Assembly (NCBI GenBank): GCA_031278835.1
Contig: JAITJP010000028.1
Span: 1 to 53,606, forward strand
Direction of reading: 5' to 3'
From: Deltaproteobacteria bacterium
Lineage (GTDB): Bacteria > Desulfobacterota > Desulfarculia > Adiutricales > Adiutricaceae
Length of the DNA stretch: 53,606 nt
Under the pieces are notes generated by a model. It ran no database searches. It saw only the letters and a list, made by a program, of their open reading frames with translations, and was not told where the DNA came from. Positions within the stretch are counted from its first letter, which is position 1. The number at the start of each line of letters is the position of its first letter. Positions 26,062-53,606 of this stretch are shown piece by piece. A program made the position numbers and the translations under genes.

Positions 26062-26074
26062 GAGGAAAAAATTC

Positions 26075-28162: not shown

Positions 28163-28173
28163 GGGCCAGCCCA

Positions 28174-28211
28174 AGTTAACTTAGTTAGTTTTAGAACTAA
28201 CTAAGTTAACT
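28174..28211 (+). other. Perfect 17-bp-stem hairpin between tssC and tssE
   Basis: agttaacttagttagtt-ttag-aactaactaagttaact. It starts 12 nt after the tssC stop and ends 25 nt before the tssE ATG. No T-run follows. Confidence 0.7.
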
Positions 28212-28236
28212 CTGGCTTTGGACATGGACTAAGTAA

Positions 28237-28620
28237 ATGGGCGGCTCCCTTTTTGAAAGGTTAACCATGGGCTCCCAGGCCCAGGCCTTGGAGGAAAACG
28301 ATTCCATACGAAACCATCTGCTAAGGTTATTGACCACCAGGCAGGGGGCCGTTCAGACCCTGCCTGACTATGGGCTGCCCGACTTAAACCATCTGGGGCT
28401 CTCCAAAAGCGAGCTTTTGAGTGAATGTTGTCGGGTCATGGCCGAGGGCATCGAGCGTTACGAGCCCAGGCTGACCAAGGTTAGGGTGGAGGCCTTGCGG
28501 GAAAGCCAGGGGCCCATGACCTTGGTCTTTGCCATCTCGGGGCAAAAGGTCTCCGAGAACGGGGAGCTGTCACCTTGGCGTTGGGCCTTTAGCTTAGACA
28601 ACTTGAAGTTTAAGCCCTAG
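28237..28620 (+). CDS. tssE: T6SS baseplate protein TssE (gp25-like)
   Basis: 127 aa. SLFERL...IRNHLLRLLTTRQGAVQTLPDYGLPDL is the typical TssE/GPW_gp25 signature. Confidence 0.9.
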   Translation: MGGSLFERLTMGSQAQALEENDSIRNHLLRLLTTRQGAVQTLPDYGLPDLNHLGLSKSELLSECCRVMAEGIERYEPRLTKVRVEALRESQGPMTLVFAISGQKVSENGELSPWRWAFSLDNLKFKP

Positions 28621-28738
28621 CCAGTTAAAGGCCCAGATAATTTTTTCCCATTTTTTATGTTTTTTGGCTGGAGCCTGGGGCAATAAATTAAAAAAAAGGC
28701 CAGTATTTGGGGCTTTTTCAGGGGCTTTTATCGGGAAA

Positions 28739-30502: not shown

Positions 30503-31503
30503 ACCAGTTTTTGGATGAGCAGGGCAGGCGGCTCAAAGAAGCCCTGACCGAGAACCCGGGCAGTTTTAGCCTGGCCCAGGCCGTCACTCTTAGTCAGAGC
30601 TTGATTAACTCGTTTTTTGGCTCTGGCTCAAAAAATAGCCCGCGCTACCGGGTTAACCCGTCTTTGAGTTTTCCGCCCCACGACTTGGCCGCTCTGGATT
30701 TTGAAAACACCGACAGCGGGCTTAGGACCCTAATCACCCTAAACCTGATGGGCTTGCATGGAGCGGCATCGCCCATCCCGGCTTATTTCACCGAGTACGT
30801 GGCCCAGCATCAAGACGAAAAATGCCTTTTAAGGGATTTTCTCGATATCTTTAACCACCATTTGGTCGATTTACTCTGCCAATCTTGGCTAAAGTATCGC
30901 TACCATCTACGTTTTAGGCCCCAGGCCAGCGATAGTCTCTCCAATCGGTTTTTTAGCTTCATGGGCTTGGGTCACCCGACTTTGCGGGAAAACGGCCAGC
31001 TAGATCCGGTCAGGCTCATGGCTTACATGGGTCTAATCGCTTTTAGCGGTGAATCGGCCGGATCTCTGGAGAGCATTTTACGCCATTACTTTTCCCACCG
31101 AGAAGTTCACCTGATTTTGTGCGTGCGCCGCCAAGTGCCCATCCCAGACGATCAAAAATCCTCCCTGGGCCTGGCCAACAGTACTTTGGCCGACGATTGC
31201 CTTTTGGGAGAACAGGTATGCGATCAAAGTGGCAAGTTTCGTATCGTCATAGAAAACCTAAACTGGCTGGCCTTTAATGGCTTTCTGCCCTGCGGTCAAA
31301 CCTTTCCCCGCCTCAAATCGCTGATTCGCTTTGTCATGCGCTCGCAACTAAGCTTCGATTTGGAACTGCGCCTAAGGCCCCAAGACATTCCGGCCCTAAT
31401 CATCAGCCAATCGGCCCAGTGCCGTTTGGGCTGGTCAACTTGGCTAGGTAACGGCGGCGACGGCCTGGTCCTCTTGGAAACCGATAGCCTTTACTATCAC
31501 TAG
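30469..31503 (+). CDS. tssG: T6SS baseplate protein TssG
   Basis: 344 aa. It overlaps the tssF end by 34 nt. Position and size match TssG; GLHGAASPIPAYFTEY is TssG-like. Confidence 0.85.
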   Translation: MASPIRPDEPLDQFLDEQGRRLKEALTENPGSFSLAQAVTLSQSLINSFFGSGSKNSPRYRVNPSLSFPPHDLAALDFENTDSGLRTLITLNLMGLHGAASPIPAYFTEYVAQHQDEKCLLRDFLDIFNHHLVDLLCQSWLKYRYHLRFRPQASDSLSNRFFSFMGLGHPTLRENGQLDPVRLMAYMGLIAFSGESAGSLESILRHYFSHREVHLILCVRRQVPIPDDQKSSLGLANSTLADDCLLGEQVCDQSGKFRIVIENLNWLAFNGFLPCGQTFPRLKSLIRFVMRSQLSFDLELRLRPQDIPALIISQSAQCRLGWSTWLGNGGDGLVLLETDSLYYH

Positions 31504-31575
31504 CCAAAACTCTAGTCCCCTGGCCCAGGCCCCTAGGTTAGGGGACTTGGCCAAGGCAGATGGTGCTTAAAAGTC

Positions 31576-34245: not shown

Positions 34246-34307
34246 AAAAGACTTAATTAAATAAAAATTCTTTTATTTTTTTAAGTTAATTTAAAAAAAT
34301 CTTAGCT

Positions 34308-35660
34308 ATGGAAATATTATTCGAAATCATAAGTCACCATAAATTTTTCCCCCAGGGTAGGATCTCCCATATTTTTAACGAAAGCGGAGGTTACATTGGC
34401 CGTTCCAACGAGTCTGACTGGGTTTTGCCGGATCGTTTTCGAGAGATCTCCCGTAAACACGCCCTAATTAGCTGCGATGGTAAGAATTTTTTCCTGGAGG
34501 ATTTAAGTTCCAATGGGGTTATGTCCACCTTGACCCAGGAAATGGTCGGGGCCGGCCAAAGACACCTAATCCAGCACGGCGATTCTTTCCAGCTGGGCCA
34601 GTTCGTCATCCAAGCCAGGCTGCTGAGAAACCCCAATTCCTACTTGCCGGTTGATTTGGAGGGCACGGTTATTGAAAACGACCAAGACCTTGACCCCCTG
34701 GTGGCCATGGAGCGCCAAGAACTTCGAGAAGTAAGAGATGGCCTGGGCTTTTACGACGACTTGGTGGCCCCAAAAAACTCCCAGCCCCCCAGCTATGCCG
34801 ATAGCCTGCCCGATCATAACCAGGCCGAGCTAAACGCCATGCTCAGCGTCCGGGGCATCCCCGAGGACTGGGAGGCCGACCAGCCAGACCTGGTGGCTCT
34901 TGGTCTGGAGCCCCGGGCCCAGGAGCCAGAGCTTTGGCTCCACTCGCCCCAGGACAATTCCGGCCCGGCCTCTGGCCCCCAGGCGGCGACGCCGGTCATT
35001 GACTTTATCCCAGGCCAGGGGCCGGGGGCCCAAAACAGTGGGCCCAGACTGGCCCCTGACTTTGAGCCCAGTAGTGAAGTTGATTTGTTTTTTAAGACCC
35101 TGGGAGTGGACCTGGAGGGGGCCAGTTCCGAGGAGCGTAAAAAATTACTTATTTTGGCGGCCGAACTTTTGCGGGCCTCAATTGACGGCCTGACCAGTTC
35201 GCTTCAAAATCGGGCGGCCAGTCAAAAAGAACTGCGCTTGCCCATAACCACCATTGAAGTTTCTGGCAATAACCCTTTAAAGTTTGCCCCAAGTCTTCAA
35301 ACGGCCTTAAACCATCTGTTTTTTAAGCCATGGCCAGAGGCCCTCTCGCCTCAGGAGTCCATCGCCCAGGCCTTTAATGATTTACACTCCCATCACCTGG
35401 GTATACTGGCCGGGGCCCGGGCGGTCACGGCCGCCTTACTGAATAAGTTAGCCCCGGCCAAGGTCCAAGAACGCCTGGAAACCACTGGCTCCTTTAAGCT
35501 AAACAAAGAAGTTAAGTTATGGAAGACTTACACAAAACTTCATGTGGAAATATCCGAATCAGAGGCCTTGGCTGATTTCTTTTCGCGCGATTTTGCCAGA
35601 GCCTATGAAAGGCAGGTCCGCCTCCTAAAACCGGTTAAATCCGGGCCTCGAGAGGGCTAA
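34308..35660 (+). CDS. tagH: T6SS-associated FHA-domain protein (TagH/Fha1-like)
   Basis: N-terminal FHA (GRSNESDWVLPD...ISRKHALISCDGKNFFLEDLSSNGV). Pro/Gln-rich linker. TagH-type C-terminal domain. Confidence 0.85.
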   Translation: MEILFEIISHHKFFPQGRISHIFNESGGYIGRSNESDWVLPDRFREISRKHALISCDGKNFFLEDLSSNGVMSTLTQEMVGAGQRHLIQHGDSFQLGQFVIQARLLRNPNSYLPVDLEGTVIENDQDLDPLVAMERQELREVRDGLGFYDDLVAPKNSQPPSYADSLPDHNQAELNAMLSVRGIPEDWEADQPDLVALGLEPRAQEPELWLHSPQDNSGPASGPQAATPVIDFIPGQGPGAQNSGPRLAPDFEPSSEVDLFFKTLGVDLEGASSEERKKLLILAAELLRASIDGLTSSLQNRAASQKELRLPITTIEVSGNNPLKFAPSLQTALNHLFFKPWPEALSPQESIAQAFNDLHSHHLGILAGARAVTAALLNKLAPAKVQERLETTGSFKLNKEVKLWKTYTKLHVEISESEALADFFSRDFARAYERQVRLLKPVKSGPREG

Positions 35661-35665
35661 GAATA

Positions 35666-36421
35666 ATGCCGCTTTTATTTTTTTTCCAAAAATCATTTTT
35701 GACCAGAAGCCTGGTTGGGCTTTGGCTGGCCTTAATGGCCGGCCTGGCCTTGTCACTGTCCGGTTGCGGCGGCCCCTCTCTGACTTTGGTCATGGCCGGC
35801 TTACCTAACGCCAATCCGGACGCCACCGGACGGCCCTCTCCGGTCATCATCCAAATGTACGAACTAAGATCCGATTTGCTCTTTAAGCAAGCCGAAATGG
35901 TCCCCTTGTTTAGCGACCCCACCGGGGTTTTGGGGGCCGATCTGGTGGCCTTGGATGAGCTGACCGTTTTGCCGGCCACGGCTTACACCATTGAGTATGA
36001 ACCGGCCCCCGAGACCAAGTTTATTGGGGTCATGGCCAGTTTTAGGCAATCGGCCGGAAAGGGCCCCTGGAAAATCATCGTGCCCATTGACCCCCAAGAC
36101 CAAACCACCCTGGCTATTGAACTAAACTCATCGAGTTTGATTTTAATCCCCCCTGATAAGGCCAAAAAATGGGATCCGGCCCAGGCCCTGGCCAGTTACC
36201 GAGAAAGCTCCCGGGGCACCTCGGTTAGCCCGCCCTTGATGGGCGGCCCAAGCCAGGCCGAATCGGCTGCAGCTTTGGCCGAAACGGACTCAGAGAATTT
36301 ACCCGAGGCCAGCGCTTCCAGGGTTTTTGACTACCCGCCCGGGCCTTCGCTGGAAAAGGCCACCGAGACTTTAGAGCCCAGCCAGGCCCTTAAAAAAGTC
36401 GAGAGCCTGGTCAGTCAGTAA
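35666..36421 (+). CDS. tssJ: T6SS outer-membrane lipoprotein TssJ with a Ser/Pro/Ala/Glu-rich C-terminal extension
   Basis: The lipobox LSLSGC follows a hydrophobic leader. The SciN-like core is RPSPVIIQMYELRSDLLF. About 90 extra C-terminal residues. Confidence 0.8.
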   Translation: MPLLFFFQKSFLTRSLVGLWLALMAGLALSLSGCGGPSLTLVMAGLPNANPDATGRPSPVIIQMYELRSDLLFKQAEMVPLFSDPTGVLGADLVALDELTVLPATAYTIEYEPAPETKFIGVMASFRQSAGKGPWKIIVPIDPQDQTTLAIELNSSSLILIPPDKAKKWDPAQALASYRESSRGTSVSPPLMGGPSQAESAAALAETDSENLPEASASRVFDYPPGPSLEKATETLEPSQALKKVESLVSQ

Positions 36422-36487
36422 AAAAAAAGAAAAAAAAGCGCCCAGCCCATTGGGCTTATGATTTAAACATCATTTAAGTGGTAAATA

Positions 36488-37819
36488 ATGCTCCCAGAAA
36501 AAGTGGTTTGGTCGGAAGGCATGATGCTAAGGCCGCAGCATTTTCAACAACAGGATCGCTATTTGGCGGCCCAGATCCAAAGGCGCGGGCTTTTACTGTC
36601 TCATTATCCCTGGGGACTAAGCGAGTTTGAAATCGACCAGCAGTATTTAAGTTTAGGCAAACTGGTCTTGAGCCGAGCGGCCGGGCTCTTACCGGACGGA
36701 ACCCTTTTTGAAACCGGCCGGGGCCGAGAATTATTAAGCTTGGATATTCCCTCGGGCCTTAGTAATCAATTGATTTATTTGGTTTTGCCCTTGTCGCCTG
36801 AGGGCTCCTCTGAAACCAGCCCCGAGGGTGAGGCCGGTTTGGCCACCAAGTATTTGAGCCATCCCCTGGAGGTTTATGACAGTAATATTGGCCAGACCAG
36901 AAATTTTACCATCATGTGCGGGGCCCTGGCTTTGAGACTGGTTTTGGAAAGTGAATTAAAGCTCGAGGGCTGTTTGGCCATGCCAATAGCCAAACTGGTG
37001 GAAAGCAAGGCCGACCGAAGCCTGGTTTTGGACCAGGCCTTCCAGCCCACCTATTTGCGCTTATCGGCCTGCGATTTATTTTCCGGCTATTTGCGGGAAA
37101 TAATCGGGCTTCTTGCCCACCGGGGCAGTCAGCTTTCCTTAAAAGTGGCCGGGGCCGGGCCCAGCGGGGCGGCCGAGATAGCCGATTTTTTGCTATTGCA
37201 AACCATCAATCGTCTGGAGCCTTTCTTTAAGCACCTGGAAAAGGCCGTAAACGTACACCCCGAGGAATTTTATCTTAATCTCTTGGTTTTGATTGGCGAA
37301 TTGTCCACCTTTGCCGAGAGCGCCAAGCGGCCCAAAGAATCTCCGGCCTATGACCACCTAAGGCAGGAAGCGGTCCTGACCGCCCTAATGGAGCAGGCCC
37401 GCTATCTCTTGAGCATGGTTTTGGAACAGCACTCAGTCGAGTTGCCGCTCCAGAAAAGAAAATACGACATCTTGGTGGCCACCATCCACGATCGAAGCTT
37501 ACTGACCACGGCCACTTTCGTGGTCTCGGCCCAAGCCGACCTAGCCCAGGAGACCTTGCGATCGTCCTTACCCAAGCAGCTAAAAATCGGCCCGGTTGAG
37601 CGCATTAGGCAGTTAATCAATCTCCATCTGCCCGGCATAAACCTTAGGCCCTTACCGGTGGCCCCCAGACAGATTCCTTTTCACGCTGACAAGACTTACT
37701 TCCGTTTGGAGATTACTTCCGAAGAACTTTCGCAGTTGGAACTCTCCGGCGGCTTTGCCTTTTTTGTCTCCGGGACCTTCCCGGGGCTAAAACTGCGCTT
37801 TTGGGCCATTAAAGAATAA
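36488..37819 (+). CDS. tssK: T6SS baseplate protein TssK
   Basis: The canonical N-terminus KVVWSEGMMLRPQHFQQQDRYL. 443 aa. Confidence 0.95.
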   Translation: MLPEKVVWSEGMMLRPQHFQQQDRYLAAQIQRRGLLLSHYPWGLSEFEIDQQYLSLGKLVLSRAAGLLPDGTLFETGRGRELLSLDIPSGLSNQLIYLVLPLSPEGSSETSPEGEAGLATKYLSHPLEVYDSNIGQTRNFTIMCGALALRLVLESELKLEGCLAMPIAKLVESKADRSLVLDQAFQPTYLRLSACDLFSGYLREIIGLLAHRGSQLSLKVAGAGPSGAAEIADFLLLQTINRLEPFFKHLEKAVNVHPEEFYLNLLVLIGELSTFAESAKRPKESPAYDHLRQEAVLTALMEQARYLLSMVLEQHSVELPLQKRKYDILVATIHDRSLLTTATFVVSAQADLAQETLRSSLPKQLKIGPVERIRQLINLHLPGINLRPLPVAPRQIPFHADKTYFRLEITSEELSQLELSGGFAFFVSGTFPGLKLRFWAIKE

Positions 37820-37873
37820 ACCAAGCCCAGGCCCCCGAGGGGCCCGGGCTTAGGCAAGGCCCGGACAGGAGCC

Positions 37874-38803
37874 ATGAGAATGCCCAGTCAAGAAAGTTAC
37901 GACGCCGACAAAACCGTGGTCAAGCCCCTGGGGGCTTGGCCCAGCCAGCCTCATGATCCGCCCTTTAAGGTGGTGGCCAGAGCCCCGTCAAAGGCCTCGG
38001 CCTTGGATCAACCCTATATTGGTCAACAAAGTTCTTTGGAGGGCTACCCCAGTGGCATAAATCCTCTAATTGAGGCATCTTTCCCCTTATTAACTGAAAT
38101 AATTAATCTACGTAAGGGAGAACAGGAAAATTTAGAATGGCTAAGGCAGACTTTTGAGACCGGAATCAGGGCCTTTGAGGCCAAGGCCTTAAATAGCCTT
38201 ATTGATCGCTCCCAGATCCTGGCCGCCCGTTACCTTTTGTGCACGGCCTTGGACGAAAGCGTGACCATGTCCTCAATTGAGGATAGCGCCGCCTGGGCCC
38301 ATGAGGCCCTTTTGAGTACCTTTCATGACGAGACCTGGGGCGGCGAAAAATCCTTTAAGATTTTAGAGCGTTGCATGCAGCATCCCGCCCAAAACTTATA
38401 TTTATTGGAACTAATTTACGTCCTAATTAGCCTGGGTTTTGAGGGCCGATACCGGGTCATGGAAAGGGGTATCCAGGCCTTGGAAGCCCTAAGGGACAAA
38501 GTTTACCAGCAGATCCGCATCCTTCGAGGCGAGCCCATCTTGGATTTGGCTAAACCAGTCGATAAGGTCGAAACCGTCAATCCCCTGCACCGTTATTTGC
38601 CGGTTTGGCTGGTCCTGGTTTTGGCCCTCCTGGTCCTGGCCATCAGCTTTGTGGGTTTTTACTTTACCCTAAAAACCCGGGCCCAGCAGGTCTTTGAGGC
38701 CTACCAGACCTCAAACCAGATAAGCTCAAATCAGTTGAGCTCAACTGATTTGAAGCTAAGCCAAATTGAGCTTGGCCAAATTAAAACCAGTGATGAGAAC
38801 TAA
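37874..38803 (+). CDS. tssL: T6SS membrane-complex protein TssL (DotU family), no peptidoglycan-binding domain
   Basis: DotU core (NPLIEASFPLLTEI..., ARYLLCTALDESV). A single C-terminal TM helix (WLVLVLALLVLAISFVGFYF). A short Ser/Gln-rich tail. Confidence 0.85.
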   Translation: MRMPSQESYDADKTVVKPLGAWPSQPHDPPFKVVARAPSKASALDQPYIGQQSSLEGYPSGINPLIEASFPLLTEIINLRKGEQENLEWLRQTFETGIRAFEAKALNSLIDRSQILAARYLLCTALDESVTMSSIEDSAAWAHEALLSTFHDETWGGEKSFKILERCMQHPAQNLYLLELIYVLISLGFEGRYRVMERGIQALEALRDKVYQQIRILRGEPILDLAKPVDKVETVNPLHRYLPVWLVLVLALLVLAISFVGFYFTLKTRAQQVFEAYQTSNQISSNQLSSTDLKLSQIELGQIKTSDEN

Positions 38804-38806
38804 ATC

Positions 38807-41800
38807 ATGATTAAACGGGTATTTGGCTTCTTTACTCGCTTTGGGGCTTATTTGCGAGAAGCCGGGGTGGTTACCTTGGCCCTGCTGGTTATTTGTTTGG
38901 CCTTGATTTGGCTTTTTGGACCGACCATCAGTATTTCCGGAAAACAGATTCTGGAGAGTATTAACTCTAGACTGGTGGCCAGCATTGGGCTTTTGGTTTT
39001 GTGGCTACTGTTTATGACCACCTATAAGTCCATAAATAGTAAGATCGAAAATAAAGATCCAGAAAAACTGGCCAATAAGCAAAAACAAGCCCAAGCCAAA
39101 AAGCAAGCCAAAATTGAAAGAAACCGGACCAGGCAAACCATCAAGGAAACGGTCAGGACTATTGAGAGATCCAGTTATTTTGGGCCCGAGAGTCGATCGA
39201 GGTACTCCCTGCCTTGGTATCTGGTCATCGGGGCCAGTAATAGCGGCAAAACCCTGGCCCTTTTAAATTCCGGGCAAAAGTTTCCCATAAACGAGCAGGC
39301 CGACCGTAACCTTTACAAACTAAAGGCCACCGCCCAACCCGAGGTTCTCTTTGGAAATCAAGCCATTTACATCGATACCCCGGGGGCTTATTTGGAAAAA
39401 AGCTCTGGCGATAATGGTCAGAGCGCCTTTTCTGATTTACTCAAGGCTTTGTATAAAGCCAGACCGGCTAGGCCCATTAACGGGGTCATGGTGACCTTAA
39501 GCCTTAGGGACTTAATGCTGGAAGACCAGTCCCTTTACGAGCACTTGGCTAGGCTAACTAGGGATCGCTTGACCGAGGTTTTAAAAAGCCTAAAAACCCA
39601 GGTGCCCGTCTATCTGCTTTTGACCAAAAGCGACGCCCTGCCGGGTTTTTTCACTTTTTTCTCAGGTCTTTCTAGGTCGGAAAGGGAGCAGATTTTTGGC
39701 TTCCATAACCTTAAGGGGTCCATGGAACCGGGCCGGGTTAGGGCCGAGGTGGCCGATCTGCTAAAAACCTTAAATAGTCAGGTCTTTACCAAGATGCACC
39801 ATGAGCGGGACCTGGCCTCCAGGGGCGATATCATAAATTTCCCCCGGGAACTGGAAAAACTCTCGGCCAAGCTGGAAGACTTCATTTCCGAGGCCTTTGG
39901 CCCTTCCCGTTACCACAAACCGGTCATGTTTCGGGGCTTTTTCTTTACCTGTTCCCTTTCGTCCCAAAAGGCCTTGGAAGCGGCCGACCATAATGGCCAG
40001 TGGTCCTTTCAAACCGGCTACCAGCCGGCCGTGGGTGAGTACGCCAAGGGCTTTTTTCTCTCCAGGCTTTTTAGCCAGGCCATTATTCCGGAAGCCGGAC
40101 TGGCCCTAGACGATCGTAAAAAATGGGCCGGTTTTCGCTTTAGCCAAAAAGCCGTAAAAATGGCCATTTTCGCCCTGATGGTGGCGGCCGGTTTTCTTTT
40201 GGCCTTAAGTTTCAATAACAATTATTCAAAACTGCAGCGGCTCGATCTCTTTAATTCGGAAATTTTAACTAAGATTGGCCAAAACAAAAGCCCGGAGGGG
40301 GCCAAATATGTTTTGCCCGAGCTTAAGGCCTTTGAATCGGCCCTAAGGGTTTTTAAGCCAGCCCAGGATTCTAAACTCAAATACGGTTTGGGTCTCTACC
40401 AAGGCCATCAGGCCAGAAAGGTGCTTGGCCAGGCCTATAAGGCCGATCTTAATCAGAGATTTTTAAGTCTGATCCGCTCAGACGCCGCCCAACAGGTGGA
40501 AAATTCTCTGGGCAATATCGGTGAGCTTAAAAAAAACTTAAGGGCTTATTTGATGCTCTGTCAGCCTGAGCGCCTGGATGGGGCTTATTTACAAACCTGG
40601 GCACAAGAGCGCTGGTCCAGGCAATACCAAGGCCAGTCCGAGGCCCAAAATGAATTACAGGGCCAACTGCTGGCTCTCATTTCTTACGGCCTAGAAGCCA
40701 GCCAGCCCGATTACGCCCTCTTGGAAAGGGCCCGCCAGGCCATGTTTCAACTGCCCCTGGCCGAACTGGCCTACGATCAGGTCAAAGATGAGGCCGTCAA
40801 CTCGGGCCGGGCCCCCTTTACCTTCCAAAGGGCCTTGGGCGAATCTCTCTCGCCCTTTGAGGGCGACGACTTTCCCATCCCCTTTCTTTACACCCGGGCT
40901 GGTTTTGAAGAATATTTACTCAAGCGCTGTCCTGAGCTCATTAAGGAACTGACCTCCGATAGCTGGGTCTTTGGCCTAAATAACCAAGAAACCGGCCTGT
41001 CTCTAAGCCAACTTGACCTGGCCCGGATTCAAGGCGAGGTCAATAGCCTTTACTACCGTGATTACATTGAATACTGGAGCCAAGCCCTAAAAGCCCTAAG
41101 CCTGGCCCAGCCCCAAAACCTGGCCGAGGCCGCCCAAAAAGCCAACCAGCTCAGCTCGGGCCCCTCGCCGGCCGTCCTGGTCCTGCGCGAGCTTCGTTAC
41201 AACGCCCATCTGATGGTCCCCCAGGCCCCGCCCCCGACCAGCCAGGCCGCGGCCGCGGCCGAGGCCGATGGCCAGCCCGCTGGCCAGGCCGCCCCGGAAA
41301 GCCCGCCAGCGGCCGGTTCCCCGGACCCGGCTCAGGCTGGCCCCGAGGCCCAGCCCCAAGGTGAGGCCCTAGCGGTCAAGGCTTATTTTAGTCAATTTGA
41401 GGCCCTTTTGACCGCGGAGGGTTTGGCCGGCCCCTCCTTGGCGGCCGCCAATGAGGCCATGAGCGCCGCGGCTGGATTTTTTGAGCGCCTGACTTCCAGC
41501 GATGACCCAAGGCAGGCCGCCTTTGGGGCTTTACTCAAGATCTCCGAGGACCAAGACGATACCTTAAGACGCCTAAACGCGGCGGCCGGCAAACTGCCGC
41601 CCGAGATCGGCTCTTGGTATACGGTCATCCTGGAGGGCGGCTTGGACCGACTCTGTTATTTGGCCGCCGTCAATATCGACAGCCTCTACAAGACCGAGGT
41701 CTTGGAGTATTTTGAGGCCTCGCTAAGGGATTACTACCCCTTTAATCCCAGATCAGGCTCGGACGCCAATCTTAACGATTTCGCGGAATTTTTTAGGGCC

Positions 41801-42349
41801 GGCGGCCTGGTCGATTCCTTTCAAAGCGCCTATCTAAAGCCCTTTCTTAACCCCTCGGGCCAGTTAAAAACCATCATGGGCAAAAGCTTGCCCCTAAAGG
41901 CCAAAGCCGTGGCCCAGTTAAACCGGGCCGCCCTGGTCAGAGAGGCCTTTTTCGCCGGCGGTGCCAATCCCTCCCTAAGTTACTTTATTGAGCCCAGCAC
42001 CATGGACGAAAGCCTTAAGGTCACCACTTTAAGCCATGACAATAAAACGGTCAGTTATTGGCACGGCCCCATTCAGGGCTCAAGTTTTAGCTGGCCCGGC
42101 GGCGGCCCGGCCTCGGTGGTTTTTGAAGACTTGCAAGGGGTCAGCCAAAGGCGCGAGTCCCGAGGCCTTTTTAGCATCTTTAGACTTTTCCAAGGCGGCA
42201 CCCTGGTCAGAGGCCAGTCCGGCGCCGGGAACCTCATTGAACTTAAACAAAACAACAAATGGACCCGTTTTAATGTTTCCCACCGCAACCGGGCCAACCC
42301 CTTTGACCCGGCCATCTCCGGCTACGCCCCGCCGGACTCGCTGCGCTAA
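38807..42349 (+). CDS. tssM: T6SS membrane-complex protein TssM (IcmF family)
   Basis: 1180 aa with N-terminal TM helices. Walker A GASNSGKT. IcmF-type C-terminal region. A Pro/Ala/Gln-rich insertion is encoded at about 41213-41365. Confidence 0.95.
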   Translation: MIKRVFGFFTRFGAYLREAGVVTLALLVICLALIWLFGPTISISGKQILESINSRLVASIGLLVLWLLFMTTYKSINSKIENKDPEKLANKQKQAQAKKQAKIERNRTRQTIKETVRTIERSSYFGPESRSRYSLPWYLVIGASNSGKTLALLNSGQKFPINEQADRNLYKLKATAQPEVLFGNQAIYIDTPGAYLEKSSGDNGQSAFSDLLKALYKARPARPINGVMVTLSLRDLMLEDQSLYEHLARLTRDRLTEVLKSLKTQVPVYLLLTKSDALPGFFTFFSGLSRSEREQIFGFHNLKGSMEPGRVRAEVADLLKTLNSQVFTKMHHERDLASRGDIINFPRELEKLSAKLEDFISEAFGPSRYHKPVMFRGFFFTCSLSSQKALEAADHNGQWSFQTGYQPAVGEYAKGFFLSRLFSQAIIPEAGLALDDRKKWAGFRFSQKAVKMAIFALMVAAGFLLALSFNNNYSKLQRLDLFNSEILTKIGQNKSPEGAKYVLPELKAFESALRVFKPAQDSKLKYGLGLYQGHQARKVLGQAYKADLNQRFLSLIRSDAAQQVENSLGNIGELKKNLRAYLMLCQPERLDGAYLQTWAQERWSRQYQGQSEAQNELQGQLLALISYGLEASQPDYALLERARQAMFQLPLAELAYDQVKDEAVNSGRAPFTFQRALGESLSPFEGDDFPIPFLYTRAGFEEYLLKRCPELIKELTSDSWVFGLNNQETGLSLSQLDLARIQGEVNSLYYRDYIEYWSQALKALSLAQPQNLAEAAQKANQLSSGPSPAVLVLRELRYNAHLMVPQAPPPTSQAAAAAEADGQPAGQAAPESPPAAGSPDPAQAGPEAQPQGEALAVKAYFSQFEALLTAEGLAGPSLAAANEAMSAAAGFFERLTSSDDPRQAAFGALLKISEDQDDTLRRLNAAAGKLPPEIGSWYTVILEGGLDRLCYLAAVNIDSLYKTEVLEYFEASLRDYYPFNPRSGSDANLNDFAEFFRAGGLVDSFQSAYLKPFLNPSGQLKTIMGKSLPLKAKAVAQLNRAALVREAFFAGGANPSLSYFIEPSTMDESLKVTTLSHDNKTVSYWHGPIQGSSFSWPGGGPASVVFEDLQGVSQRRESRGLFSIFRLFQGGTLVRGQSGAGNLIELKQNNKWTRFNVSHRNRANPFDPAISGYAPPDSLR

Positions 42350-42372
42350 AAAATTTAGCCCAAGGAGATCCT

Positions 42373-42633
42373 ATGCCAAACTTTGCCCGCTTAGGCGATA
42401 AAGTCAGCTGCCCCAAATGCGGAGCCCAGACCATTGTCTCGGCCTCGCCCACGGCCAAGATTAAAGGTGTGCCCATAGCCCGGGTAGGTGATCAAATTAG
42501 TTGCGGTTCAATCATTACCACGGGCTCAGACCTGGTCAAGGTTGACGGAAAACCGGTGGCCCTGATTGGCTCCAAGACCTCCCACGGCGGGGTGGTCTTG
42601 GAAAACGGTCTGACCGTTTCCACGAAAAGTTAA
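42373..42633 (+). CDS. PAAR-domain spike-tip protein
   Basis: 86 aa. It has repeated A-R-x-G-D elements (FARLGDKVSC and IARVGDQISC) and HGGVV, as in PAAR proteins. Confidence 0.85.
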   Translation: MPNFARLGDKVSCPKCGAQTIVSASPTAKIKGVPIARVGDQISCGSIITTGSDLVKVDGKPVALIGSKTSHGGVVLENGLTVSTKS

Positions 42634-42675
42634 ATTAGCCAAAAATGGCTAAGCTCAAAGGCGTTTTTAATCATC

Positions 42676-43449
42676 ATGGCCGATAACCCAAATTTGACAG
42701 CCGCCCGTAGGCCCTCGCCCCAGGTGGTCTACCTGACCTCCTGGGGCTGGACCTTAACCGGAAACTGCCGAGAGGAAAACCAAGATTGCTTTTTAAACTG
42801 GCCCGAACGGCTCCTGTGGGCCGTGGCCGACGGGGTGGGCGGGGGAGAGGACGGGGCCTTGGCCAGTCAACTAATCATCCGTAGACTGTCGGCCCTGCCA
42901 ATGGCCCCCAGCCCAGAAGAAAACCTCCGGGCCATCAAAGAAGCCGCCTCCGAGGTTAACCAGGCCCTTTGGCGTAGGCGCTCTCGGGGTAAGCTTTGTT
43001 CCACCACCCTGACCGTTTTGCTGGCCCAAAACGACCAGGCCATCTGCCTTTGGGTGGGTGACAGCCGCTGCTACTTATCCCGGCAGGGGGCCCTTTACCA
43101 ATGCTCCAAAGATCATACGGCCCGGCAAAGCCACATCGACCAAGGCCTGCTCAGCCCCTGGGAAGCCCTTCGCATGATTAAGGGTAACCTGATAACCCGG
43201 GCCCTGGGTAGCCAGCCCGACCTGGAGCTCGAGCAGGTCGCCTTTGCCATCGCCCCCAGAGATCGCCTGCTTCTTTGCACCGACGGCTTGTCAAACCTGC
43301 TGTCCCCGGAAACTTTGTCAAATACCCTGGCCCGAGGCACCACGGCCAGATCGATTTCTTTAAAGTTTCAAGAGCTGATTAAAAACTTGCCCCAAAGGGA
43401 CAACATCACCCAGATAACCCTTTTGGTCTCAAAGCCATACCAGAAATGA
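42676..43449 (+). CDS. pppA: PP2C-family Ser/Thr phosphatase (PppA-like)
   Basis: WAVADGVGGGEDG, VGDSRCYL and LLLCTDGLSN are PP2C metal-binding motifs. Confidence 0.85.
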   Translation: MADNPNLTAARRPSPQVVYLTSWGWTLTGNCREENQDCFLNWPERLLWAVADGVGGGEDGALASQLIIRRLSALPMAPSPEENLRAIKEAASEVNQALWRRRSRGKLCSTTLTVLLAQNDQAICLWVGDSRCYLSRQGALYQCSKDHTARQSHIDQGLLSPWEALRMIKGNLITRALGSQPDLELEQVAFAIAPRDRLLLCTDGLSNLLSPETLSNTLARGTTARSISLKFQELIKNLPQRDNITQITLLVSKPYQK

Positions 43450-43553
43450 TTAGCCCAAACTTAAGCCAATAAAAAAAAACTTATGCCCAAGGCCTGAAAA
43501 AAAAAACACCTCCCAGGGCACTTTTGACTTAAGCCTGATTAGCGGTGATTGAC

Positions 43554-44447
43554 ATGGAACCTGTCGTAAATTTTATTGATTTAATCCCCATGGACCATTT
43601 ATCGACCAAGGCCTGGCCTGGCCTTGGGCCCGATTCTGGCCTCTCAGGGCGCTTTCTTCTGGGCCCATCGCTGGGGCAGGGGGCCATGTGCCAAGTCTTT
43701 GAGGCTATTGATCAAAGCCGGGCCCAATGGGGCGATGCCCAGCCCAAGGTGGCCATAAAAAAACTACTCCCAGAATTTCAAGAAAACCCCCAGGCCCGTC
43801 TGGCCCTGGCCCAGGAATTTTTTAAAGCCCGGGATCTGCTTCACCCCAATGTGGTTCGGGTTTACGACCTTCATCAACAAGATGGCCAGCTGATGTTTAC
43901 TATGGAACTCTTGTCCGGCCAAACCCTTAGGGATTATTTAAGCGCCCGGTCGCCCCGGCCCATCGACAAACTCAAGGCCGCCGCCCATCTATTTCAGGCC
44001 TTGGCCCACATTCACCAAAAGGGTTTGGCCCACGCCGACCTTAAGCCCGGAAACCTTTTCCTTTGCCCTGGCCGAACGGTCATCTTTGATTTTAACCTTT
44101 CAGTGGTCTGGCCGGCCGGCCAAGAAAAGGCCTCATCGCCCATCCAGGCCCTGCTTAAGGCCAAAAGCCTGCCCGGTTACACCATGGCCTACGCCAGCCT
44201 GGAGCGCCTCCAAGGGGCCCGGCCCAGCTTGGCCGACGATATCTTTGCCGCCAGCCTAACCGCCTACGAACTCTTGACCGGTAATCACCCCTTTTCGCGC
44301 CTTCCGGCCGACCAGGCCCAACAAAAGGGCCTTAGCCCCAAGCGCCCGGCTCAACTGGCCCGAAGGCCCTGGAAGTACCTTTTGGCCGGCCTAAGCCTTA
44401 AGCCGGACCAACGCCCCCAGGCCTCTGAGCTTAGCCGGGTCTTTTAA
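43554..44447 (+). CDS. ppkA: Hanks-type Ser/Thr protein kinase (PpkA-like), kinase domain only
   Basis: Gly-loop GQGAMCQV. VAIKKL lysine. Catalytic loop HADLKPGN (non-RD). DFN in place of DFG. About 297 aa with no TM segment or extracytoplasmic domain. GTG at 43545 is an alternative start. Confidence 0.8.
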   Translation: MEPVVNFIDLIPMDHLSTKAWPGLGPDSGLSGRFLLGPSLGQGAMCQVFEAIDQSRAQWGDAQPKVAIKKLLPEFQENPQARLALAQEFFKARDLLHPNVVRVYDLHQQDGQLMFTMELLSGQTLRDYLSARSPRPIDKLKAAAHLFQALAHIHQKGLAHADLKPGNLFLCPGRTVIFDFNLSVVWPAGQEKASSPIQALLKAKSLPGYTMAYASLERLQGARPSLADDIFAASLTAYELLTGNHPFSRLPADQAQQKGLSPKRPAQLARRPWKYLLAGLSLKPDQRPQASELSRVF

Positions 44448-45691: not shown

Positions 45692-46213
45692 ATGCCTGTT
45701 CCCGCTTATCTCAGTATCACCGGCGAGCGTCAGGGCCTCATCACTCAAGGTAACTTTACCGAGGCCTCGGTTGGCAACATCTACCAAGAGGGTCACGAGG
45801 ACGAGACCTTGGTCGAGGCCTTTGAGCACCAGATCGTCTTGCCCCGTGATCCCCAGTCCGGCCAACCCACCGGCCAGCGCGTCCACAAGCCCTTAAAGAT
45901 CACCAAGGTCATCGATAAGTCCTCGCCCCTACTCTTTAGGGCCCTGACCAGCGGTGAGCGCTTGCCCAACGTGACCATGAAGTTCTATCGCACCTCGGCC
46001 TCGGGCACCATGGAACACTATTTCACCATCCAGCTGGAAGACGCCATCATCGTCGACATCACCAGCTACATGCCCAACTGCCAAGACCCCGGTCTGGCCC
46101 ATTTCACTCACCTTGAAGACGTCTACATGACCTACCGCAAGATCATCAAAACCCACGAGGTGGCCAGTACCTCCGAGAGCGATGACTGGAGAACCCAGTC
46201 CACGGCCGCTTAA
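45692..46213 (+). CDS. hcp: T6SS inner-tube protein Hcp
   Basis: MPVPAYLSITGERQGLITQG...EGHEDETLVEAFEHQIVLPRDPQSGQPTGQRVHKP...SDDWR is the classic Hcp/TssD sequence. GAGGAG RBS. Confidence 0.95.
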   Translation: MPVPAYLSITGERQGLITQGNFTEASVGNIYQEGHEDETLVEAFEHQIVLPRDPQSGQPTGQRVHKPLKITKVIDKSSPLLFRALTSGERLPNVTMKFYRTSASGTMEHYFTIQLEDAIIVDITSYMPNCQDPGLAHFTHLEDVYMTYRKIIKTHEVASTSESDDWRTQSTAA

Positions 46214-49519: not shown

Positions 49520-52500
49520 ATGGGTAACGAGCCAATTCAAGATTCGAATTTTTATATAAACCTATGGGCCATCAAAGGGGTGATTCTATTTCCCGCTTTG
49601 GGAACCCCGGCCATCATTGAACCCAATGGTCAGTTGACCGTATACCTGGCCATGCAAAAACGGGCCTTTGATCGGCACACCAAGAATAATGGGGCCAGTA
49701 GTCCTGGGGCCCCGGTACCCATTGAGCTGGCCAGCTATTTCTATTTCCAGACCATGATTACCCCTTGGACCGATCGCGGTCGGGATTACGTTAATTACAA
49801 AAAATACTCCGATGAATTGGCCACGGAAGCGGCCGCTTCCAAGCGTTTTTACACCAGCTTTGAAAAAGCTCACCAGATGTTTAAACAAAAAAAATTCGGT
49901 GGCTTTTACGTCGGAGAATTTCAAAAGGATCAAGAATTCTTGGCCCAATATTACCCCTTGGAAGGCGACCTTAAACCGCAAGGTCCTTTTGGGGTGATCC
50001 ACAAAGAAGCCGTTAACATGTATCTTGACGGCCAATTAACCGAAACCGAGCCCAAAAAAGCCGCTGAGCCCCCCAGCGCTAAGGACCAGGAGGAGCCCGG
50101 GGTGCCGCCCGAAAATCTGGGCTATCGTTACGTTTTTCAGTTCACGGTCAAGGATTCTCCAAAACTGGCCCATCAAGGTTTATATGAGCTCATGTATTTA
50201 TACATAAATTACGCTCATTACTTTAAAGCCATAATTAATCGGCAAAAAAATGATCACTGGGTTTTGAAAAAATTTGGAGACATACACGATCATTATTTGA
50301 CCAATCCTGGCGATGATCTGGTTTCAAAGGTGATTATTAACGATCTAGAGGTCAAGACCAAGCAAATCAAGTCTGAGTCTAAAATCGTCAACACTTTTGA
50401 GTTTGAGCGCTGGCCTTACATGGAACCGGAAAAAATGAAACTGGTCAAGATTTACGATTCCGATCCCACTTTGGTCATGACTCAGGGCCAAAAAAATTTG
50501 GCCGGAAAACCAGACCAGGATAGAGGCGGGGGTGAAAAATCTTTGCACTATCTGTCCGATAAAAACGGCTGGTTCGTTCTTTCCAAGCACCCGGTTTACA
50601 TAACTGAAAAAAATTATCTTGACCTGGGCGTGGTCTCGGATCTCCATCTTTCCTCCAGGCAGGCCAGCTACAAACTTGTGGCCCCTCAGGTAATCCATGG
50701 GGTTATGGAACAAGATTCGCCCTATCTTGGAGCCCTATGTAACCAAGCCCTGGAAACGGCCCAGAGCCTGATGAAATCCATTGGCCAGGAAAGCGACCTC
50801 CTAATCGTGGCCGGCGACGCCTTTGACGTTCTTAGAAACCTGGATCCCAAAGTGGTGGAATCGAAAACCCTGGCCCTAAGACAAGCCGAGAGCCAAAGGG
50901 CGGCGGCCAACCCAGACCAAGTGCCTAGCCCAGAACCACCTGGGCCAGGTGATTCTGGGCCAAGCGGTTCTGGCTCAGCCCAGACCCCTAAAGCTGGCCA
51001 AGACCCAGACAAGCCCCCGCGGGAAATAAAATTGAGTACGGCCGAACTGTGGGAGCATCTGGATTTTAAAAAATATGAAGGCCAGGGGCCCAATTACCCA
51101 TTTTATATCGACGCCTTGATGTTTATGGCTTTGATATTTGACTATTACACCATCTCGAAAAAACCGGTTTTTTATCTAACCGGCAACCACGAGGCTTATG
51201 AGGTGCCCTACGGTATTTCGCCCAGACCAATGTTTATGAACAATAACATTATCGTCTTTCGGCCCAACGCCGGCATCCCCTCAGACCAAAATTTAACCTT
51301 TTATGAAGCCGCTTTATTGTTTGGCAAAAAATACAGCTTCATTGGCCGAATCGCCAATTTTAAAAAGGAAAATTTGGCTTGGGCTTACCGCTGGATTACG
51401 CCTTGGAAAGATTGCTTGGTAAATTCCGGTAAAAATCAAAACATGTTACTGATGGGCTGGGACGATGATGAAAATTATTTATTGTCAGCCCTGGCCGGAG
51501 GCGATTCTCTGCCCAGGGCCGGTTCGGCCATTACCGACCATCAGCTAAGCTTACTTAAGCGCATGACCGGCCAGGCTGACAAATTTAACCTAATGGCCTC
51601 CCATTTCACCTACGCTAATTTTGACCTGGAAAGCCCCTTGCATAGGCAAGATCGGCTCCGCTCCGGCTCTTGGATTTTACCCCTAAGAAAATCCGACACC
51701 GGCTCATTTGAGGAAAACCGCACGGCCGTGTATTCGGAACTGACCGGGGGGCGGGTTAAGCTGACCATCTCGGGTCATTCCCACCGAGGCGGCGCCTATA
51801 CCTGCTCCGGCGCTGGCCAGATCGATGGCTTGCGCCTTAATGGTTCGGCTGGAGCGGCTGGAGCGGGACGATCTGAAGGTTCGGAAGGTTCGGGAGATTC
51901 GGGCGGATTGGGCGGAGCCGAGGGGGACCAAGGGGTCAGCCTTACCCCGAGCGGGCGGGGACTAAAATCAGTCAATCCCCAAGAGCAGTTCCCGGGTTCG
52001 GTGGCTTGTCTGGTCTCAGGCTCGGCCGGGCTTTACTCGTATCAAAATCTCACCAATGGTGAGCTCTCGGACGTCGATAAACCCCAGGGCATGATTATAA
52101 AATGCGGCCTGTCCGGGGAGCTGGAAAGAGTTCACTACGTGCGAAACGAGAATTGTCCCAAACCGCGCCTGGCCGTGCGCTGCGATTACTTATGGTACGA
52201 AAATGGCATAGAAATGTTTTATCATGGTGATGAGGTTAAGGGTGACATAGTCGCTGAAGAAAAAAAGAAAGATTTAGAGCCTCAATACATGTTTTATTTA
52301 AACCCAGAGTGGCTTCGCTATCTAAATAATGGTAAAAGCGAGGAAAACCAAGCCCTGCCCATAGCTTACTTTCACCTCTACTGTATCAACAGAAAAAATT
52401 ACGAAACTTTTTCAACCAAAGCCCTAGCTCTTGAGATCGAGTCAGACGAGCCCACTTATCCGCTTGGCAAACATCGTAAAGTCCCGGCCTATAAACTGAC

Positions 52501-52777
52501 CAGTGGGCCGCAAGAAGTTATCAACGTCATGGGTAGGCGCTCTTTACTGGGCGATTTTGATGAGCAAACGGCTATTTTGTACTTTATATCGGTTCATTTT
52601 AATGAAAGCCACCCCATCGGCCAGCACTATGATCTTAAATCGCCTTGGTGTTACCCGGTGAATGTCACTTATGACCGAAAGATCATTACCAGAAAATTTG
52701 GCCGCGATGGTGAGTTGCCGCTATACTCGGAATTAAAGAAAATTCCCGAATATAACCCGACCGAAGGCAAAGAGTAA
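49520..52777 (+). CDS. Large VgrG-adjacent protein with a calcineurin-like metallophosphoesterase motif set; candidate T6SS effector
   Basis: DxH in VVSDLHLS (nt 50639-50647). GDxxD in VAGDAFD (50813-50827). GNHE in YLTGNHEAY (51182-51193). GHxH in TISGHSHRGG (51773-51784). No signal peptide. Low-complexity P/S/G linkers. Same strand as vgrG and 202 nt downstream of it. Confidence 0.7.
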   Translation: MGNEPIQDSNFYINLWAIKGVILFPALGTPAIIEPNGQLTVYLAMQKRAFDRHTKNNGASSPGAPVPIELASYFYFQTMITPWTDRGRDYVNYKKYSDELATEAAASKRFYTSFEKAHQMFKQKKFGGFYVGEFQKDQEFLAQYYPLEGDLKPQGPFGVIHKEAVNMYLDGQLTETEPKKAAEPPSAKDQEEPGVPPENLGYRYVFQFTVKDSPKLAHQGLYELMYLYINYAHYFKAIINRQKNDHWVLKKFGDIHDHYLTNPGDDLVSKVIINDLEVKTKQIKSESKIVNTFEFERWPYMEPEKMKLVKIYDSDPTLVMTQGQKNLAGKPDQDRGGGEKSLHYLSDKNGWFVLSKHPVYITEKNYLDLGVVSDLHLSSRQASYKLVAPQVIHGVMEQDSPYLGALCNQALETAQSLMKSIGQESDLLIVAGDAFDVLRNLDPKVVESKTLALRQAESQRAAANPDQVPSPEPPGPGDSGPSGSGSAQTPKAGQDPDKPPREIKLSTAELWEHLDFKKYEGQGPNYPFYIDALMFMALIFDYYTISKKPVFYLTGNHEAYEVPYGISPRPMFMNNNIIVFRPNAGIPSDQNLTFYEAALLFGKKYSFIGRIANFKKENLAWAYRWITPWKDCLVNSGKNQNMLLMGWDDDENYLLSALAGGDSLPRAGSAITDHQLSLLKRMTGQADKFNLMASHFTYANFDLESPLHRQDRLRSGSWILPLRKSDTGSFEENRTAVYSELTGGRVKLTISGHSHRGGAYTCSGAGQIDGLRLNGSAGAAGAGRSEGSEGSGDSGGLGGAEGDQGVSLTPSGRGLKSVNPQEQFPGSVACLVSGSAGLYSYQNLTNGELSDVDKPQGMIIKCGLSGELERVHYVRNENCPKPRLAVRCDYLWYENGIEMFYHGDEVKGDIVAEEKKKDLEPQYMFYLNPEWLRYLNNGKSEENQALPIAYFHLYCINRKNYETFSTKALALEIESDEPTYPLGKHRKVPAYKLTSGPQEVINVMGRRSLLGDFDEQTAILYFISVHFNESHPIGQHYDLKSPWCYPVNVTYDRKIITRKFGRDGELPLYSELKKIPEYNPTEGKE

Positions 52778-52968
52778 AAAAAATATTGATTGAGTTGATA
52801 AGATTTTTTCAAGGCGCTTGGTGGAGTTTTTGGAATCAAGGCGCCTGGTGAAGTTTCTTAGAATTTACTGGGCTTTTAGGCGGCTAAGCTGATTGATTCG
52901 ATTCATTTAATTGATTCGGTAAAAATTTGGTAAACCAAAAAACAGTCCCAATCACCGGAGGACGCTTC

Positions 52969-53606
52969 ATGGCCCTAAGCACAGATTTGATAACCGTAAA
53001 CATCACCGCGGCCGCCATGGCCGCCAACCCGGCCGGCTTGAGCGGAAAACAAATCACTTGCGACATAGATGGCGATTTTGTTTTAGAAAACGCCGTCATT
53101 AAAAGGGCCAGTTTCAACAATTCAAAAATCTGGCGCTCCACCATCAGAAACGTCACCTTTGAGAACTGTTCCTTTACTCGGACCCAGTTCATGAGCACCA
53201 CCTTTGAAAACGTCATATTTAAGGGCGGAAGCGTTAGCTATAGACCCGGTTCTCGCTACGATGATGACGAGGCCAGTTTTGAGGACGTCAGGTTCATAAA
53301 CGTGGTCATGGACGGGGTTTCTTTACACGAGGCTTATTTCCAGGTGACCAGCCGGGGCAATAATTTAACCCTTAAAAACTTAACTAACGTTAGAAACAAA
53401 TACGTGTCTTTTTATATTGGCAATTCAAAGTTGATCATCGACAACTGTAAGGCCAATAACGAATTGTTCGCCGTCCTAAGCGGCGAGCGGACCACGGTTT
53501 ATGTCAACAATTGTGAATTTACCAAGTACTCCGGCATTGGCGGAAACTGTAAGTCTTTGTTTATTAACAATTCGAAATTTTTACGTTTTTCTTATATTGG
53601 CGGCGG
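52969..53606 (+). CDS. Pentapeptide-repeat / beta-helix protein, 3' end outside the window
   Basis: This ORF is not in the track because it has no stop in the window. ATG at 52969 follows GGAG (52957-60). My translation is MALSTDLITV...VLENA VIKRA SFNNS KIWRS TIRNV TFENC SFTRT QFMST TFENV IFKGG. It has 5-residue periodicity, then about 22-residue N/C-rich repeats. Confidence 0.7.
   Translation, partial: MALSTDLITVNITAAAMAANPAGLSGKQITCDIDGDFVLENAVIKRASFNNSKIWRSTIRNVTFENCSFTRTQFMSTTFENVIFKGGSVSYRPGSRYDDDEASFEDVRFINVVMDGVSLHEAYFQVTSRGNNLTLKNLTNVRNKYVSFYIGNSKLIIDNCKANNELFAVLSGERTTVYVNNCEFTKYSGIGGNCKSLFINNSKFLRFSYIGG

Follow-up and report, generated by a model that had tools for sequence, protein, structure and literature searches.

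The window analysed here, a stretch of 53,606 nt comprising contig JAITJP010000028.1 of a Deltaproteobacteria bacterium (Adiutricaceae), ends within a gene for a pentapeptide-repeat beta-solenoid protein (PRP), which follows a vgrG gene of a type VI secretion system (T6SS) and a gene for a large metallophosphoesterase (MPE). Comparative analysis of sequences and gene neighbourhoods suggested that PRP gives cognate immunity against the VgrG-associated MPE encoded upstream and that the two form a probable new effector–immunity pair, a reading to which we assign a probability of about 0.55. The initial annotation of this DNA had raised the idea of an immunity protein that acts as a DNA mimic. A cognate partnership and a probable immunity role are supported by the pairing of the two genes, their co-divergence, exported relatives, and orphan copies, whereas the DNA-mimic mechanism is not.

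PRP genes are paired with MPE genes across loci

The co-occurrence of PRP and MPE homologues, which the initial annotation had singled out for a survey, was evaluated in related loci. Where the flanks can be read, PRP almost always adjoins an MPE of ~1,000 aa, namely in the window and in L002, L001, L003, L006, L007, L008, L009, L010/L011, L016, and L020 (~13 loci). The pairing persists where the MPE is 26–30% identical to the window MPE and is seen in both gene orders, with PRP downstream of MPE in L009 and L010/L011 and upstream of it in L007 and L008. In addition, an MPE-profile scan covering one genome per species returned L020, from a metagenome-assembled genome (MAG) annotated as Burkholderiaceae, in which MPE is followed by two PRPs, and L021, from a MAG annotated as Betaproteobacteria, in which it is followed by a 405-aa beta-helix protein. 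Contigs from Gammaproteobacteria and Desulfobulbaceae also matched; on these, the MPE gene is cut off by the contig end.

L001 has one vgrG and, downstream of it, three tandem MPE–PRP cassettes with catalytically intact MPEs. No open reading frame (ORF) of at least 100 aa lies between the cassette genes, so L001 offers no other immunity candidate. This arrangement bears on an alternative in which PRP is a cytoplasmic accessory factor, comparable to TvpB/TagB or to the Tec/Tap adaptors, that stabilises MPE or docks it on the VgrG–PAAR spike and stays behind at firing, and in which MPE could be an anti-eukaryotic effector needing no immunity. If PRP had such a role, the three intact MPEs of L001 would be left without an immunity gene.

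The gene order in L003 (2604–12214) is VgrG–PRP′–[MPEa–PRPa]–MPE′. As MPE′ is 70% identical to the MPE of L007, whose partner is of the PRP′ type, each MPE in L003 is accompanied by a subfamily-matched partner, and the locus is not an exception. The cassette that stands between PRP′ and MPE′ suggests that MPE–PRP pairs are relocated or duplicated together inside vgrG islands. Moreover, the identity matrices of MPE and of the downstream PRP are correlated in seven close pairs (Mantel r = 0.575, reached by 111 of 5040 permutations). Two features looked for in an immunity gene, a position beside the effector and inheritance of the pair as a unit, were thus both found, in the adjacency, the tandem cassettes, the subfamily matching, and the Mantel correlation.

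Strict 1:1 pairing and co-divergence would also suit a two-component toxin, in which PRP is a co-effector or second subunit that is delivered with MPE or required for its activity, and the T6SS effector TseG of Pantoea has been reported with a YjbI/pentapeptide domain (PMC10933656). However, neither an enzymatic domain nor a delivery marker such as PAAR or MIX was found in PRP, and the export signals and orphan copies of its relatives (below) also argue against such a toxin, which we regard as very unlikely. Ratios of non-synonymous to synonymous substitution rates (dN/dS), calculated gene-wide, indicated purifying selection on both genes with no sign of an arms race, which does not separate the explanations.

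Further observations were made at these loci. The MPE of L008 (P0026, 2007–4997) has GSLK in place of GNHE and is missing the stretch before GHxH, and its PRP′ partner is retained; judged from its sequence, P0026 has probably lost its activity or is decaying as an effector. In L009 (6292–6369), the stop codon of the lipoprotein PRP gene overlaps with a PAAR-like start (…GDSTSHGG), and a new vgrG starts directly after the cassette in L016 (3347–3793) and in L008 (5031–5147). Directly 3′ of the third L001 cassette (16492–20682), genes for a GrpE-like protein (484 aa), a small DnaJ-like protein (129 aa), and an Hsp70 (593 aa) look like a dedicated chaperone set beside the effector array.

PRP relatives are frequently exported and occur as orphans

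An exhaustive hidden Markov model search for the PRP family yielded 80 representatives at E ≤ 1e-10, with 32 at E ≤ 1e-30. Export was called heuristically, with a simple hydropathy and lipobox test. Among PRPs that stand beside an MPE, the protein of L009 carries a lipobox signal (MNGFIKLLPFILGVLLMTAC), those of L010/L011 carry a Sec-type signal, and both copies of L020 carry an RRKF motif together with a lipobox. Furthermore, an N-terminal signal, anchor, or lipobox was recognised in ~33 of 45 distant relatives, mostly near full length, and 32 of the 45 share the pattern P[TSE]x2-3[LMWH]G at the C-terminus. A PRP that is exported can neither place cargo on VgrG, a cytoplasmic step, nor be fired by the T6SS, and the signals in L009, L010, L020, and most distant relatives therefore argue against both an accessory role and co-delivery. 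In L020, the gene order is vgrG, a Tla1-like DUF4123 adaptor (PF13503, 64 bits), MPE, and two tandem lipoprotein PRPs, indicating that the adaptor slot of this locus is already filled.

Two PRP copies stand apart from any MPE or T6SS gene. P0014 (L004) carries a Tat signal, its neighbours being DUF4410 and radical-SAM genes, and P0073 (L025) is a lipoprotein encoded among the housekeeping genes ftsH, folP, glmM, and lpxC; the copy in L005 is probably also an orphan. Orphan immunity genes are a known phenomenon. An orphan adaptor would be without cargo, so these copies favour immunity over an accessory role, and their housekeeping contexts likewise speak against a co-effector.

The clusters of the distant PRP relatives are all singletons, and all except P0073 lie on contigs of <2 kb. 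The family is rare and stems mostly from uncultured bacteria. Its named relatives are delta-, beta-, and gammaproteobacterial MAGs, and isolate names such as ant_bin and Lab288P3 suggest insect-gut sources. A viral-contig scan, a tblastn search against plasmids, and PADLOC gave no matches. Metagenome loci L022–L024, which were among the matches listed for a PRP-profile pattern that proved too generic, were set aside since they share 22–27% identity and look like generic pentapeptide-repeat proteins. For a subgroup of short lipoproteins (P0072, P0075, P0077, P0085, P0087, and P0091; 238–260 aa), the match to the PRP profile is confined to the profile's N-terminal half, and several members of this subgroup end in a …YGPPVYTPP-like motif.

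Immunity is weighed against accessory roles

Immunity is favoured over an adaptor, accessory, or co-effector role because relatives are exported, L020 has a separate adaptor, and orphans occur; the simple architecture of PRP, a single solenoid without another domain, was also counted for immunity. The comparison with known accessory proteins points the same way. TvpB/TagB and TvpAB/TagAB of the class III Tvp complexes act with a DUF2169 protein, the DUF3540 protein TvpC, and a DUF4150-type PAAR (PMC13373197, PMC11883445, PMC8747328). None of DUF2169, DUF3540, or a DUF4150/PIPY PAAR was found in the window T6SS cluster or in the gene tables of L001, L002, and L003, and the window PAAR belongs to PF05488, so PRP does not appear to be a Tvp/TagB-type accessory. 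With regard to the cytoplasmic location of Tvp proteins, the window subfamily is signal-less, whereas PRPs of L009, L010, and L020 and ~33 of the 45 relatives appear exported by the heuristic calls. PRP resembles TagB/TvpB and TagAB/TvpAB in its pentapeptide repeats, its location near vgrG, and its non-enzymatic nature; unlike theirs, its partner is a large enzyme and not a PAAR tip, and many of its relatives are exported.

Several points weigh against an immunity role. Neither the window PRP subfamily nor the PRP′ subfamily has an export signal, and the export evidence stems from relatives only 17–32% identical to the window PRP. Immunity in two compartments for one toxin family would be unusual. 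Moreover, dN/dS is lower in PRP (0.05–0.16) than in MPE (0.15–0.24) in 7 of 7 pairs, and PRP is better conserved than MPE (e.g. 87% vs. 66% identity). Immunity genes often evolve fast, and the slow-evolving PRP departs from that pattern, perhaps owing to the strict packing that a beta-solenoid demands; the lower identity of MPE is partly due to linkers that vary in length. The window MPE is itself a putative toxin, as judged from sequence, and TagB/TvpB and TagAB/TvpAB, the T6SS pentapeptide proteins that the literature searches turned up, are accessory factors and not immunity proteins (PMC13373197, PMC11883445).

These published precedents (together with PMC8747328), the lack of a signal peptide in the window PRP and its close paralogues, and the stronger purifying selection on PRP than on MPE all fit an accessory role, and Pfam scans recognised no DUF4123, DUF1795, or DUF2169 adaptor in the window cluster. 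Set against the exported relatives, the filled adaptor slot of L020, the orphans, the missing Tvp hallmarks, and the unprotected MPEs that it would imply in L001, this role seems unlikely to us. The adaptor and co-effector alternatives, both of which the initial annotation had listed, are thus weakened for the family as a whole but may still apply to the signal-less window subfamily.

The window gene encodes the N-terminal part of a single beta-solenoid

PRP starts at ATG 52969–52971, and its frame is open for 212 codons up to the window end. In-frame stops upstream of the ATG exclude a hidden N-terminal extension. The ribosome-binding site and the start codon (ATG or GTG) align across 7 related loci, and the remainder of the spacer is unconserved. 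The initial annotation had given the same start, with a GGAG ribosome-binding site, and the same frame leaving the window; the site reads GGAGGA, with a 7-nt spacer to the ATG. It had also pointed out that the ORF track gives only a spurious antisense ORF here; the ORF list indeed holds only the antisense frame at 52884–53216, because ORFs running off the window end are omitted from it. The dN/dS ratio relative to the closest orthologue (87% protein identity) is 0.06, indicating that the frame on the + strand is under purifying selection.

All ten pentapeptides previously listed were recovered verbatim, and an eleventh (SVSYR) was added, giving VLENA VIKRA SFNNS KIWRS TIRNV TFENC SFTRT QFMST TFENV IFKGG SVSYR at aa 37–91. 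A hydrophobic run of 11 at period 5 was equalled in 16 of 20,000 shuffles. The window PRP exceeded the gathering cut-offs of PF00805 (28.9 bits, cut-off 20.2) and PF13576 (31.7 bits, cut-off 27), which places it among the pentapeptide-repeat proteins of the clan of PF00805, PF13576, and PF13599. No signal peptide was visible by eye, without a predictor, in the window PRP, which agrees with the earlier impression.

The length and fold of the complete protein were deduced from orthologues. A word-indexed search of 5.8 billion proteins identified ~14 close relatives, the named ones from 'Deltaproteobacteria bacterium' MAGs. Full-length orthologues have 397–399 aa, from which a length of ~398 aa is inferred for the window protein, and end in a conserved tail, ...ESPxPFxFPxIxxPTPExLGVRVE. 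The AlphaFold2 model of orthologue P0005 (81% identity to the window fragment) reached a predicted local distance difference test score (pLDDT) of 88.3 and a predicted template modelling score (pTM) of 0.87. It forms one continuous right-handed beta-solenoid with short strands at ~aa 28–352, followed by a short tail, consistent with the right-handed beta-helix that had been predicted from the repeats. The N-terminal third of PRP is a canonical pentapeptide-repeat helix, and the remainder consists of degenerate coils and the conserved tail. A loop at aa 90–103 interrupts the helix; alignments showed that its position is kept family-wide and that its acidic sequence varies among paralogues, and the pLDDT of the P0005 model falls to 64 at residues 91–100, i.e. 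in the loop region. No second or enzymatic domain was found in the completed PRP. The large multi-domain protein that had been named as an outcome adverse to immunity does not apply, as the completed PRP is a single ~398-aa solenoid. A Foldseek search with the P0005 model returned only weak, generic beta-helix and pentapeptide-repeat matches, all with E > 1e-3, and thus no specific structural relative.

Completion of the gene, as called for by the initial annotation, was therefore achieved for length and fold through orthologues, whereas the sequence of the window itself could not be extended from public records; no exact match to the window MPE was found in public contigs, where it was sought for this extension. 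Two independent contigs, those of the window and of L002, break off within PRP, the first after codon 212 (window 53606) and the second after codon 222 (L002 9593). Near-identical paralogues were considered as the cause of both contig ends and are undemonstrated, the copies having only 69–80% nucleotide identity. The source genome may carry further MPE–PRP cassettes.

MPE has the features of a cargo effector, and DNA mimicry by PRP is not supported

The gene order in the window is VgrG, MPE, a 191-nt spacer, and PRP. MPE lies directly 3′ of vgrG in at least six loci (the window, L001, L002, L009, L010, and L019) and after the DUF4123 adaptor in L020. The motifs DxH, GDxxD, GNHE, H, and GHxH are all intact in the window MPE and conserved across the family. 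Given its position downstream of vgrG or an adaptor, its lack of a signal peptide, and its intact catalytic residues, MPE is a good candidate for a T6SS cargo effector.

Metallophos is the sole Pfam match of the 1085-aa window MPE, and for the MPE family a search at E ≤ 1 yielded nothing further except Metallophos_2, which matched 4 of the 13 members. The AlphaFold2 model of MPE was poor (pLDDT 49, pTM 0.38), and the best Foldseek match to it (E = 0.23) is meaningless given this model quality. Pro/Gly/Ser-rich low-complexity linkers at aa ~480–530 and ~790–830 of MPE differ greatly in length between paralogues.

The initial annotation had described the upstream protein as an MPE-fold protein akin to Mre11/SbcD. 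The fold was confirmed by the Metallophos match with its five motifs; no Mre11/SbcD-specific signal and no DNA-binding or capping domain was detected by Pfam or by a profile search of PDB sequences, the latter matching only LpxH at a non-significant E of 0.2–0.4. Since Pfam sees only a generic Metallophos domain and the LpxH matches are non-significant, the fold that MPE has in common with Mre11 is no evidence for a nuclease.

This result bears on the proposal that PRP acts by DNA mimicry or target protection in the manner of Qnr, MfpA, AlbG, or McbG, either blocking a nuclease-like MPE or shielding a DNA-bound target of the toxin. Alignments of the N-terminal repeats of PRP to EfsQnr, MfpA, and AlbG have E values of 1e-9 to 1e-6; AlbG and McbG confer self-resistance to gyrase poisons (PDB titles); and YjbI-like pentapeptide genes adjoin GH-E nuclease toxins in T6SS regions (PMC5714182). 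However, profile matches to the solved Qnr, MfpA, and AlbG structures are limited to the repeat region, and PRP is about twice as long as these chains. In the window subfamily, the net charge is −2 to +3 with an isoelectric point of 6–8.6, and the charge of the window fragment is +3. The strongly electronegative rod of ~180–220 aa known from Qnr and MfpA was not found, as judged by net charge over ~398 aa. Scores against the NCBIfam equivalogs were 19 bits for Qnr (cut-off 240), 16.4 for QnrA (cut-off 450), and 15.9 for MfpA (cut-off 360). Moreover, most relatives appear periplasmic by the heuristic calls, a compartment where DNA is absent. With near-zero charge, missed Qnr and MfpA cut-offs, periplasmic relatives, and no nuclease signature, the DNA-mimic hypothesis is left unsupported, and we hold it to be highly unlikely. 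Membership of HalA (Hailong) was also rejected, the NCBIfam scores of 28–37 bits (cut-off 250) deriving from the repeats only.

Proposed mode of action

If PRP is an immunity protein, its solenoid rod would dock one-to-one on MPE and occlude the dimetal active site or the substrate groove, with the variable acidic loop at aa 90–103 as a candidate specificity or plug element. Because it has no signal peptide, the window PRP would act in the cytoplasm, where it could neutralise the toxin in the producer, ahead of export, and in sister cells that have received it. In other lineages, where PRPs bear a Sec, lipoprotein, or Tat signal, their place of action would be the periplasm. The substrate of MPE is perhaps, as a matter of speculation, a phosphoester or pyrophosphate that can be reached from both faces of the inner membrane. 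Either MPE can intoxicate from both sides of this membrane, or PRPs without a signal serve another or a second function, for instance as pre-secretion inhibitor or chaperone.

A more specific model, which we put forward very tentatively and consider quite unlikely in this full form, would combine these elements: the rigid rod, mimicking the substrate or its shape, would plug the dimetal site with the variable acidic loop, its compartment would be switched by gain or loss of a Sec, lipoprotein, or Tat signal, and the toxin substrate would be open to attack from either face of the inner membrane, e.g. lipid-linked pyrophosphates or phospholipid head groups.

Comparison with known systems

Tle–Tli and Tae–Tai are T6SS effector–immunity pairs with periplasmic lipoprotein immunity, and vgrG, DUF4123 adaptor, effector, immunity gene is the canonical order. 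The MPE–PRP pair resembles Tle–Tli and Tae–Tai in that PRP adjoins a VgrG-linked cargo enzyme, orphan copies occur, and cassettes are duplicated, and L020 reproduces the canonical order with its two tandem lipoprotein PRPs. It differs in that the effector is an MPE and the partner a ~400-aa pentapeptide/beta-solenoid protein, in that the PRP family has both cytoplasmic and exported members, and in that gene order flips between subfamilies.

PRP shares with Qnr, MfpA, AlbG, and McbG a right-handed quadrilateral beta-helix, A(D/N)LXX-type repeats, and helix-interrupting loops, and AlbG and McbG also serve self-immunity against a toxin. In contrast to Qnr, MfpA, and AlbG, with solved chains of ~190–240 aa, PRP has ~400 aa, is near-neutral, and falls far under the family cut-offs; extra degenerate C-terminal coils, the conserved tail, and periplasmic relatives further set it apart from all four.

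Full-text literature searches found no paper on an MPE T6SS effector or on a pentapeptide-repeat T6SS immunity protein. The closest published statement concerns YjbI-like pentapeptide genes next to GH-E nuclease toxins that lack a known immunity gene (PMC5714182). As at the MPE–PRP loci, a pentapeptide gene stands there beside a T6SS-linked toxin with no other recognisable immunity gene; the toxin fold, a His-Me finger nuclease, differs from MPE, and the likeness lies in generic repeats. MPE–PRP is therefore best classed as a putative pair of a known kind, effector and immunity protein, with new folds on both sides, and all examples to date come from metagenomes and MAGs.

If this reading is correct, a VgrG-loaded MPE of ~1,000 aa would join the T6SS arsenal as a new effector class, and the pentapeptide-repeat beta-solenoid would be a new immunity fold. 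Blocking of an injected enzyme would then be a third role for pentapeptide repeats, beside topoisomerase protection by DNA mimicry and chaperoning of the VgrG–PAAR tip. The cytoplasmic/periplasmic split within one PRP family would also constitute a natural experiment on the site of action of a T6SS toxin. Practical impact hinges on experiment, given the rarity of the family and its mostly uncultured hosts.

Other features of the window

The 3′ half of the window holds a complete T6SS cluster (Table 1).

Table 1. Features of the T6SS cluster and of the PRP locus in the window.
Feature	Position	Strand	Evidence
Core T6SS genes: TssA, TssB, TssC, TssF, TssG, ClpV, Fha, TssJ, TssK, TssL, TssM, PAAR, PP2C phosphatase, Ser/Thr kinase	24034..44447	+	Pfam scans, ORF list
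127-aa ORF in TssE position	within 24034..44447	+	ORF list; placed by position
Canonical PAAR protein, 86 aa, not of DUF4150/PIPY type	42373..42633	+	PF05488, 75.9 bits
Hcp	45692..46213	+	PF05638, 114 bits
VgrG spike, 861 aa	46732..49317	+	Phage_GPD, Phage_base_V, T6SS_Vgr, DUF2345
MPE, 1085 aa, presumed VgrG-delivered cargo effector	49520..52777	+	PF00149; five MPE motifs
Antisense 110-aa ORF, judged spurious	52884..53216	-	Opposite + strand frame has Pfam matches, orthologues, low dN/dS
Shine-Dalgarno sequence GGAGGA	52957..52962	+	Spacer to ATG of 7 nt
PRP, 5′ part of pentapeptide-repeat beta-solenoid gene	52969..53606	+	212 codons; translation, Pfam PF00805 and PF13576, orthologues
Eleven consecutive canonical pentapeptide repeats, aa 37–91	53077..53241	+	Period-5 hydrophobic run; Pfam stretches aa 39–89
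Helix-interrupting loop of ~12–14 residues, aa 90–103 (YRPGSRYDDDEAS)	53236..53277	+	Alignments; pLDDT dip in model

The spacer between MPE and PRP contains a 21-nt direct repeat (TCAAGGCGCTTGGTGGAGTTT / TCAAGGCGCCTGGTGAAGTTT; 52809–52856) with 27-nt spacing, which is unconserved in the spacers of related loci. An ORF of 262 aa between the Ser/Thr kinase and Hcp (44712–45500) had no Pfam or NCBIfam match. Its counterpart in L002 occupies the same position and is 75% identical, and this ORF is probably a lineage-specific T6SS accessory gene.

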